A stretch of DNA of 64,000 bases. It comes from Escherichia phage JN02. The first letter of the stretch is position 1. Each line of letters opens with the position of its first letter. Location: the sequence record MT782071.1. One strand, given 5' to 3'. This document shows, in pieces, positions 42,480 to 43,282 of this stretch. A model generated the notes under the pieces. The model was not told where the DNA came from and ran no database searches. It was given only the letters and a program-made list of their open reading frames with translations. A program made the position numbers and the translations under genes.

Positions 42480-42760
42480 CACCTACTAGGTAAGTGTTTG
42501 TACGAAACGCCGGGATTTGAACCCGGTTATTAAGTAGTTGACGCTACTCAATATTTTTAAAAGGCCATATCTCGACCATATCCGAACGTTCCGTCAAAAA
42601 CGCCACTCGGCTTACGGCAAAGATATTTCCTCGAATCGATAATTCGGTGCGCCGTTTCTGCTGTGATGTAAGGGGATATTAACAAAACATAAAGATTTAT
42701 TAAGACCAGTCCTTACTCAGGGAACATCAGTCCGACGACTTGCCGGTAGCGACCCGGCTT
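42480..42760 (-). ncRNA. Candidate small stable RNA / tRNA-like element(s)
   Basis: ~280 nt without a protein-coding ORF, next to the tRNA genes; contains a tRNA-like T-arm CCGGG-TTCAAAT-CCCGG and several GC-rich stems, but I could not fold a canonical cloverleaf; T4 carries two stable RNAs of unknown function in its tRNA cluster. Confidence 0.3.
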
Positions 42761-42761
42761 C

Positions 42762-43106
42762 TTATTTTGGCATATCATCAATTTGCTCTCGACGCCGACG
42801 CCATAGATTAATCGCTTCATAAACACATTCAGCATTTGGTATATGGCGACAATAGTACAGTGATTCACGTTTCTGGAACCGATGTTGCAATGGGATTTCG
42901 TTTAAAAGGTCTTTACGGTCAAAGTATTCAAAACTAGTTAACCCGGAACGGTTTTTAAGAAACTTCCAATGGCCGAATTCATTTTGGAAATAAACGTAAT
43001 CAGCGTGTTGATATAACGAATTAATCAACCGGTCGGAAATAACTGTATCCTGTTCGTTAAAATAAAACGTTAAATCATGAACTACTAGATAAATATTGCC
43101 TTTCAT
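42762..43106 (-). CDS. Hypothetical protein (~114 aa)
   Basis: Track ORF 42762..43154; its 5' extension overlaps the tRNA-Arg gene, so start set to the internal ATG (MKGNIYLVVHDL...). Confidence 0.5.
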   Translation of the reverse strand: MKGNIYLVVHDLTFYFNEQDTVISDRLINSLYQHADYVYFQNEFGHWKFLKNRSGLTSFEYFDRKDLLNEIPLQHRFQKRESLYYCRHIPNAECVYEAINLWRRRREQIDDMPK

Positions 43107-43125
43107 ATTTTCCTCACTTAAAGTT

Positions 43126-43202
43126 GGTCGAGACAGAAGGATTCTAACCTTCAACCTACGGATTAGAAGTCCGTTGCTCTATACAATTGAGCTATGCCTC
43201 GA
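43126..43202 (-). tRNA. tRNA-Arg (anticodon UCU), CCA encoded
   Basis: Manual fold: acceptor CGAGGCA/TGTCTCG, D-stem GCTC/GAGC, anticodon stem ACGGA/TCCGT with loop CTTCTAA, T-arm GAAGG-TTAGAAT-CCTTC, 3' ACCA. Confidence 0.7.
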
Positions 43203-43208
43203 ATATAT

Positions 43209-43282
43209 GACCCAGACCAGATTCGAACTGGTAACCTTTCCCTTATGAGGGGACTGCTGCTAACCATTGAGCTACAGGGCCT
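43209..43282 (-). tRNA. tRNA with CAU anticodon (Ile-lysidine type or Met)
   Basis: Manual fold: acceptor GGCCCTG/CTGGGTC, anticodon loop CTCATAA, T-arm ACCAG-TTCGAAT-CTGGT; T4 encodes an AUA-reading tRNA-Ile next to tRNA-Arg. Confidence 0.65.

Follow-up and report, generated by a model that had tools for sequence, protein, structure and literature searches.

The segment between positions 42480 and 42760 of a 64-kb stretch of Escherichia phage JN02 (record MT782071.1; the whole stretch is referred to below as the window) is, judged by its sequence, made up of rnaD and rnaC, orthologues of the species 2 and species 1 RNAs of phage T4. These T4 RNAs have been known since the 1970s, and JN02 carries one more near-identical copy of them. 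Alignment of the annotated T4 features (AF158101; rnaD at 71053-71171 and rnaC at 70908-71046) with the window revealed the same order and strand in both phages, and by blastn rnaC is 97.8% identical to its T4 counterpart over 139 of 139 nt, and rnaD is 86% identical over 121 nt. The 6-nt spacer between rnaD and rnaC, the trailer downstream of rnaC and the terminator behind it are all kept between T4 and the window. The window belongs to an RB69-like Mosigvirus, with its best DNA matches in Shigella phage JK42 (97.7%) and many Mosigvirus records, and homologues of the segment were found in 792 phage records, nearly all from enterobacterial Tevenvirinae. We are highly confident that the locus is the tRNA and stable-RNA transcription unit, rnaD and rnaC included, of an RB69-like (Mosigvirus) relative of T4.

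A first-pass annotation, made from the DNA letters, had described this segment as a non-coding neighbour of two tRNA genes that might encode stable RNAs like T4 species 1/2 or a degenerate tRNA. The former suggestion is borne out by the T4 alignment, identity, order, strand, spacer, trailer and terminator. The T arm that it had read as CCGGG-TTCAAAT-CCCGG lies at 42526..42510 on the minus strand. As it had stated, the segment holds no credible open reading frame (ORF), since just TTG- or GTG-start ORFs of 20-51 aa are present, with lengths not kept relative to T4, and no canonical cloverleaf, since neither ARAGORN nor the Rfam tRNA model RF00005, even at E<=10, found one there. The covariance-model check that it had proposed gave a divided outcome: the two tRNAs were matched, whereas the stable-RNA segment gave no match. 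None of the 4227 Rfam models matched positions 42429-42765 above chance, at gathering thresholds or at E<=10, but these missing matches say nothing about rnaC and rnaD because Rfam has no family for them. The chance-level matches were PyrR, NsiR1 and Yfr10 on the terminator and mascRNA on the 17-nt T arm (E=9.2).

Other RNA classes were considered for the segment and rejected. For a tmRNA, both an ARAGORN call in the window and a tag ORF are missing; the sole match to the Y-RNA YrlA falls on the true tRNAs; and a canonical tRNA disagrees with the 70-nt arm in place of the D arm, the 6-nt loop and the lack of any ARAGORN or RF00005 match.

rnaC is a constrained tRNA-shaped RNA

To characterize the structure of rnaC, homologues were gathered from a phage collection, IMG/VR and metagenomes, and 24, later 27, distinct sequences were aligned; they came from Tequatrovirus, Mosigvirus, Gaprivervirus, Kanagawavirus, Moonvirus, Karamvirus, Gelderlandvirus, Winklervirus, Marfavirus, Mosugukvirus and unclassified relatives. 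The results showed that rnaC is a constrained RNA with the shape of a tRNA, and is not a tRNA. Its minimum free energy (MFE) is −50.2 kcal/mol (z = −4.2), a value equalled by 0 of 200 shuffled sequences. RNAalifold run on the 24 sequences gave a four-way junction with 39 pairs, 25 of them compensatory, in which an acceptor stem, a long irregular arm, an anticodon-like arm and a T arm meet (Table 1); the linker between the long and anticodon-like arms is A-rich, and a single nucleotide precedes the T stem. When the loop-loop helix described below was included and the 27 sequences were used, 96.6% of the alignment cells were paired and 27 of the 44 pairs had changed on both sides. Column shuffles of the same alignment gave 85% paired cells and 17.9 compensatory pairs, and partners slid out of register gave about 40% and 4-8, respectively. 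The 24-sequence and 27-sequence sets agreed with each other (96.6-98.0% of cells paired, 26-27 of the 44 pairs compensatory). The acceptor stem takes part in the covariation, with A3-U70 in T4-type phages replaced by G-C elsewhere; in Pectobacterium phage PM2, both U.U mismatches of this stem have become U-A and the 3-70 pair has become G.U. The long arm occurs in two versions of equal length that are unrelated in sequence.

The likeness of rnaC to a canonical tRNA (RF00005) includes a 7-bp acceptor stem stacked on a 5-bp T stem, the UUCAAAU T loop and placement in a tRNA array, where rnaC is set apart from its neighbours as tRNAs are. In contrast to a tRNA, rnaC has no D arm and no encoded CCA (U-ACA), and its "anticodon" arm is 10 bp long with a 6-nt loop. 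The joining of an acceptor/T-arm mimic to a non-tRNA module is shared with tmRNA, the Y-RNA-like YrlA and mascRNA. The closest known counterpart is T4 rnaC itself, which has the same strand, the same position (past rnaD, ahead of the trailer and terminator) and the same predicted fold; the JN02 RNA, known from its sequence, differs from it by three substitutions, one of which lies in the T loop (UUCAAAU in JN02, UUCGAAU in T4).

In Kanagawavirus and Winklervirus, the T loop of rnaC reads UGCAUGC, UGCAUCC or UGCAUUC in place of UUCRAAU, and the T stem is kept; in these lineages, the role of rnaC thus does not depend on a canonical T-loop sequence. At the 3′ end, most rnaC genes read CG-U-ACAA past the acceptor stem, and those of Marfavirus and PM2 have U-CCA directly past it, a tRNA-type end with a U discriminator. 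G3.U70 is the alanine identity pair. Aminoacylation of some versions of rnaC is therefore a possibility, namely those of Marfavirus and PM2 with U-CCA, the latter also with G3.U70.

Two complementary loops of rnaC

The loop at the apex of the long arm (L1, UUGACG) and the loop of the anticodon-like arm (L2, CGUCAA) are each exactly 6 nt long and perfectly complementary to each other. Of the 27 aligned homologues, 22 carry both loops unchanged and 26 keep full complementarity between them. In the 4 aligned Marfavirus sequences the loops read UUGGCG and CGCCAA, a double change that converts an A-U pair into G-C. This pattern leads us to predict a loop-loop (kissing) pairing between L1 and L2, within one molecule or between two. 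L2 is not a decoding anticodon loop, because it has 6 nt, not 7, and lacks the U33/purine-37 pattern. HIV TAR/TAR* and ColE1 RNA I/RNA II are kissing complexes with fully complementary 6- or 7-nt loops. The rnaC loops resemble them in being complementary over their full length (6 nt in rnaC), and differ in that both loops belong to one RNA and that the pairing of rnaC is predicted only.

Further independent covariation of L1 and L2 was sought. Pattern scans of IMG/VR anchored outside the loops returned known lineages only, and one metagenome scan returned 16 matches, of which 3 were true and of known lineages and 13 were chance matches in GC-rich DNA; additional phage records searched for the same purpose added PM2. 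The L1-L2 interaction was not mentioned in the literature searched, which did not reach the original reports of the 1970s.

Structure of rnaD and the BW-1 mutation

The MFE of rnaD is −34.5 kcal/mol (z = −2.4), and 4 of 200 shuffled sequences were as good. Among 16 distinct homologues, there is hardly any variation in the 5′ 48 nt and the 3′ 22 nt, and the central arm between them exists in three versions. Besides the 5′ hairpin and the closing stem (Table 1), the consensus contains a 4-bp inner helix and the variable central arm. In the 16-sequence alignment, 97.1% of the cells were paired, versus 32-51% in slid controls, and 6 pairs were compensatory, including a swap of U-A to A-U in the inner helix. 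An internal loop of rnaD may be kink-turn-like. Compared with T4 rnaD, the JN02 RNA is almost identical over the 5′ 48 nt and 3′ 22 nt and is followed by the same 6-nt spacer, whereas its central arm has diverged and its 3′ end reads ACCG in place of ACCA.

A hint that the fold of rnaD bears on phage growth comes from a published evolution experiment, in which three lines of the T4-like phage BW-1, each evolving independently on ECOR34, a semi-permissive host, acquired the same single-nucleotide polymorphism (SNP), 164264 T->C, located in rnaD (PMC12685909). We mapped this position of the BW-1 genome (OR125554.1) onto the alignment, and found that it corresponds to rnaD A77->G in the apical hairpin of the central arm. 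In the BW-1 ancestor, this hairpin reads CACAG-UUUUA-CUAUG and contains a C.A mismatch; relatives carry CUGUG as the 3′ strand, and the SNP restores the C-G pair. The predicted MFE of the central arm changes accordingly from −8.3 to −14.1 kcal/mol. This fold-restoring reading of the mutation does not appear in PMC12685909. Since the SNP restores a pair, the mapping combined with that one study suggests that keeping the rnaD fold intact is of importance on some hosts.

A complementarity between the two RNAs was also observed. The sequence GAAACG of rnaD (42657-42652) complements the 3′ acceptor strand of rnaC, CGUUUC (42509-42504), with zero mismatches; the 5′ strand of rnaC itself pairs with this strand at the cost of two U.U mismatches, and it is the rnaD-rnaC pairing that appears in the MFE fold of the whole precursor. 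Phages that carry only rnaC have CGUUCC, not CGUUUC, at this position. The complementarity could be an alternative fold of the precursor or an rnaD:rnaC duplex.

rnaC and rnaD are separate modules

The distribution of the two RNAs among T4-like phages showed that rnaC and rnaD are separate modules. The Dhakavirus phages JS10 and VR5 have rnaD only, followed directly by the trailer that comes after rnaC in T4 and in the window. On the other side, Kanagawavirus, Moonvirus, Karamvirus, Gelderlandvirus, Winklervirus and Marfavirus have rnaC only. In Karamvirus, Gelderlandvirus, Winklervirus, the Moonvirus KM16 and the Kanagawavirus CIP9, rnaC lies within a tRNA array or directly past the CCA of a tRNA; in the other rnaC-only phages, it either has ORFs on both sides or follows a tRNA at a distance of some 65-90 nt. 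When 185,579 genomes of bacteria and archaea were scanned with a motif built from L2 and the T arm, no cellular homologue of rnaC was found: there were 88 matches, all consistent with chance, and 0 of them had the flanking rnaC motifs. In Enterobacter phage Q7622 (Kanagawavirus), tRNA-like hairpins such as GUAGG-UUCGAGC-CCUAU and CCUGG-UUGGUA-CCCAGG occur about 150-300 nt downstream of rnaC in an unannotated stretch, which hints at additional tRNA-like RNAs in this lineage.

Possible biogenesis and function of rnaC and rnaD

In T4, the species 1/2 RNAs are part of a tRNA precursor of about 1.75 kb, and transcription ends past the species I gene (PMC2330249); RNA-seq and Northern blotting detected RNAC and RNAD there among the late RNAs, as stable species of about 140 and 120 nt, respectively (PMC9697503). 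By analogy, transcription of the JN02 unit would stop at the terminator and yield a single precursor, from which host tRNA-maturation enzymes would cut out the individual RNAs. RNase P would position its cut at the 5′ end of rnaC by means of the acceptor/T-arm minihelix, and this cut would also free rnaD. By the comparative evidence above, rnaC folds as a tRNA-shaped four-way junction in which the rod of about 70 nt replaces the D arm, and its 6-nt "anticodon" loop is predicted to kiss the 6-nt apical loop of the rod, intra- or intermolecularly. The two true tRNAs would meanwhile supply readers of AUA and AGA, codons that the phage uses often.

As for function, we tentatively propose, at clearly less than even odds, that rnaC is a tRNA mimic that binds or titrates a host tRNA-binding factor, for example a processing enzyme or a defence nuclease, and that rnaD is an independent accessory RNA whose effect depends on the host. 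On this proposal, rnaC would not be a decoder, rnaD would be a structured RNA of its own that, with its fold intact, raises phage fitness in a host-dependent manner, and both would be dispensable accessory RNAs. A bolder version, which we consider rather unlikely, is that rnaC is a "locked" tRNA mimic whose anticodon-like loop is hidden by the 6-bp kiss, formed intramolecularly or in a dimer; the acceptor/T-arm half would still be recognised by tRNA enzymes, so that the RNA would work as a decoy or sponge for, e.g., an anticodon nuclease of a defence system or an enzyme of tRNA processing or turnover, with rnaD as a second, independent anti-host RNA. If true, the locked version would explain the separate-module spread through the tRNA arrays of enterobacterial T4-like phages, the dispensability of both RNAs on laboratory hosts, and the repair of an rnaD base pair as the sole change selected in BW-1 on ECOR34.

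Several points weigh against these interpretations. For JN02, the view that rnaC and rnaD are co-transcribed with the tRNAs, cut free by host tRNA-processing enzymes and stable is carried over from T4, where the tRNA region is non-essential (PMC2330249). No function is given for the species 1/2 RNAs in PMC3014915, PMC9697503 or PMC12685909, and nothing found in this analysis names a binding partner of rnaC or rnaD. The kissing model draws on one compensatory event, that of Marfavirus, together with invariance elsewhere, and in PM2 just GACG/CGUC stays complementary, leaving 4 of the 6 loop pairs. The arms that carry the loops are of unequal length (about 25 bp for the long arm, 10 bp for the anticodon-like arm), which makes an intramolecular kiss geometrically awkward and the choice between pairing within and between molecules unsure. 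The non-canonical T loops of Kanagawavirus and Winklervirus imply that strict tRNA mimicry is not universal. The case for the rnaD structure is weaker than that for rnaC, because its core is almost invariant and the closing stem consequently lacks covariation support.

The tRNA-mimic proposal has to be weighed against other explanations of the segment. If rnaD and rnaC acted in cis only, as structured "end pieces" of the tRNA precursor that steer or buffer its maturation by RNase P and RNase E or shield the 3′ end of the transcript, the released molecules would have no job of their own. The location of T4-type and RB69-type rnaD-rnaC at the 3′ end of the tRNA unit just ahead of the terminator, the conservation of the trailer past rnaC, and the ability of the rnaD GAAACG to pair with the rnaC 3′ acceptor strand in the precursor fold are all consistent with a cis-only role. 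We nevertheless hold it to be unlikely: rnaC of Karamvirus, Gelderlandvirus and Winklervirus stands in the middle of the array (tRNA-Trp/tRNA-Gly or tRNA-Phe/tRNA-Trp) and not at its end, T4 accumulates the released RNAs in stable form (PMC9697503), and two invariant loops plus a long arm of conserved length exceed the constraint that a processing signal needs. Even less probable is that the two are trans-acting small RNAs that regulate phage or host mRNAs by base pairing. The term "small regulatory RNAs" is used loosely in PMC9697503 and PMC12685909, and the long invariant stretches of rnaD could be seed regions; however, T4 has no characterised trans-acting small RNA (PMC3014915), rnaC is mostly paired and its invariant loops complement each other, leaving no free seed, and it ends in a tRNA-type acceptor/T minihelix, not in a terminator hairpin and U tail.

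The idea of a degenerate tRNA, raised in the first-pass annotation, was not upheld. A T arm and an acceptor-like stem without a cloverleaf would suit decaying, functionless tRNA pseudogenes, and automatic pipelines sometimes name part of rnaC "tRNA-Lys" or "tRNA-OTHER". This reading is contradicted by the covariation of rnaC, and we rate it as very improbable: compensatory changes in 27 of the 44 pairs point to strong structural constraint and keep 96-98% of the rnaC pairs across more than ten genera, rnaC is 98% identical between the window and T4 although the neighbouring ORF114 has about 69% protein identity to its Tequatrovirus homologues, and two unrelated arm sequences retain one long-arm length. 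The least plausible explanation, which we practically discount, takes at face value the many GenBank labels of "hypothetical protein" and has the segment encode small proteins. Overlapping short ORFs do exist (a plus-strand one of 34 aa and a minus-strand one of 42 aa), and hypothetical coding sequences are annotated over the segment in many records. On the other side, every one of these ORFs starts with TTG or GTG and 0 with ATG, the lengths on the minus strand shift between T4 and the window (39 vs 42 aa and 53 vs 21 aa), and the substitutions are paired changes in stems with no codon pattern.

The two tRNA genes

ARAGORN found exactly two tRNA genes in the whole window, tRNA-Arg(tct) and a "Met"(cat) gene (Table 1), and RF00005 matched them with 71.1 and 54.0 bits, respectively (gathering score 29). 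The pair recognised by eye at first pass, including a tRNA-Arg(UCU) with an encoded CCA end, was thereby confirmed, together with a reading of the sequence itself; the CCA lies at 43127-43125, and the CAU tRNA gene has none encoded. The view that the phage has a reduced tRNA set also agrees with whole-genome counts of tRNA genes, which are 2 in RB69 and 8 in T4 (PMC2993671, Table 2).

The name "Met" for the CAU tRNA is the software default for this anticodon. The gene is identical at 73 of 74 positions to the one annotated as tRNA-Ile in T4, which identifies it as a tRNA-Ile and not a tRNA-Met, and its G1-C72 pair shows that it is not an initiator. The tRNA is presumed to decode AUA, in which case its C34 would be modified to lysidine by host TilS and it would be charged by IleRS. 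In the Rfam alignment, the acceptor stem also contains C4-G69 and C5-G68, the acceptor-stem pairs of E. coli tRNA-Ile2, which we treat as a lead only. AUA and AGA are rare codons in E. coli. In the ORFs of the window, AGA accounts for 18% of the Arg codons and AUA for 15% of the Ile codons; this frequent use by the phage, set against their rarity in E. coli, offers a rationale for keeping these two tRNAs.

The tRNA-Arg(UCU) is unrelated in sequence to the T4 tRNA-Arg(UCU), and its 3′ end resembles that of the Dhakavirus tRNA-Arg. Its T loop, UUAGAAU, is unusual in having A where nearly all tRNAs carry C56, and the GG typical of D loops is missing from its D loop (AAUUGUAUA). In this tRNA, U19-A56 may take the place of the G19-C56 pair.

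Organization of the transcription unit

All elements of the unit lie on the minus strand, in the order tRNA-Ile(CAU), tRNA-Arg(UCU), a 114-aa ORF (ORF114), rnaD, rnaC, conserved trailer and intrinsic terminator; their coordinates, given as window positions, are collected in Table 1.

Table 1. Features of the tRNA and stable-RNA locus in the JN02 window
Feature	Position	Strand	Basis
tRNA, anticodon CAU (tRNA-Ile orthologue)	43208..43281	-	ARAGORN; Rfam RF00005; T4 tRNA-Ile alignment
tRNA-Arg(UCU), reads AGA	43125..43201	-	ARAGORN; Rfam RF00005
ORF114, 114 aa, phrog_3355, RB69ORF150c equivalent	42762..43106	-	ORF list; PHROGs E=1.9e-50
rnaD (species 2 RNA), about 120 nt	42646..42765	-	Alignment with T4 rnaD, 86% over 121 nt
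rnaD 5′ hairpin, GCCGG-GUCGCUA-CCGGC	42758..42742	-	
rnaD closing stem	42739..42733 with about 42653..42646	-	
rnaC (species 1 RNA), 139 nt	42501..42639	-	Alignment with T4 rnaC, 97.8% over 139 nt
rnaC acceptor stem, 7 bp, CGAUUCG/CGUUUCG, two U.U mismatches	42638..42632 and 42509..42503	-	
rnaC long irregular arm, about 70 nt, in D-arm position	42631..42561	-	
rnaC loop L1, UUGACG	42592..42597	-	Conservation; complementarity to L2
rnaC anticodon-like arm, 10 bp, 6-nt loop	42553..42528	-	
rnaC loop L2, CGUCAA	42538..42543	-	Conservation; complementarity to L1
rnaC T arm, 5-bp stem, UUCAAAU loop (consensus UUCRAAU)	42526..42510	-	
rnaC UA tail	42502..42501	-	
Conserved trailer between rnaC and terminator	42500..42462	-	Kept with T4
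Intrinsic terminator, GCCCCUUCC-GAAA-GGUUGGGGC then U8	42429..42461	-	Whole-unit fold; conservation

ORF114 sits between tRNA-Arg and rnaD and, with its stop codon, overlaps the 5′ leader of the latter. Its ATG is preceded by a GAGG Shine-Dalgarno sequence 7 nt upstream. The protein is 94.7% identical to RB69ORF150c and has no Pfam match; tblastn found homologues in 425 phage records. The arrangement tRNA-Arg/ORF114/rnaD/rnaC is common to the JN02 window, RB69, T2 and BW-1, and rnaD adjoins ORF114 in ime09 as well. T4 is the exception, in that its rnaD begins 1 nt past the CCA of tRNA-Arg, whereas ORF114 intervenes in JN02. The terminator hairpin is present in the predicted fold of the entire unit and is kept in T4 and in Dhakavirus, where it comes straight after rnaD.

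The T4 late-promoter motif TATAAATA was not found ahead of rnaD or of the tRNAs, and a sigma-70 promoter scan gave matches not above chance. The TATAAATA motif occurs 8 times in the window, which is not above chance expectation. One exact copy, the sole one near the unit, is located at 42427..42420 on the minus strand, directly past the rnaC terminator and 35 nt upstream of a 208-aa ORF (41758-42384, phrog_2280), which suggests that it might serve as a late promoter for this ORF.

Annotation of the family

The window adds nothing unexpected to a family that is present in hundreds of sequenced relatives, often un- or mis-annotated. For the species 1/2 RNAs, a functional orphan for about 50 years, the comparative model makes the question of function testable, as it combines a tRNA-like junction, covarying complementary loops, an independent distribution among genera and a link between an adaptive SNP and the rnaD fold. 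The appropriate annotation of the locus is rnaC and rnaD, with tRNA-Ile for the CAU tRNA. Many public records carry spurious "hypothetical protein", "tRNA-Lys" and "tRNA-OTHER" features, and there is no Rfam family to catch rnaC and rnaD. The names rnaC and rnaD are used in just a few RB-phage records, and RB69 leaves both RNAs unannotated. Odd labels observed on homologues include "tRNA-Lys" in OQ599310 and NC_054919, "tRNA-OTHER" in MK373779, and coding sequences in Marfavirus, e.g., QEM42354.1.

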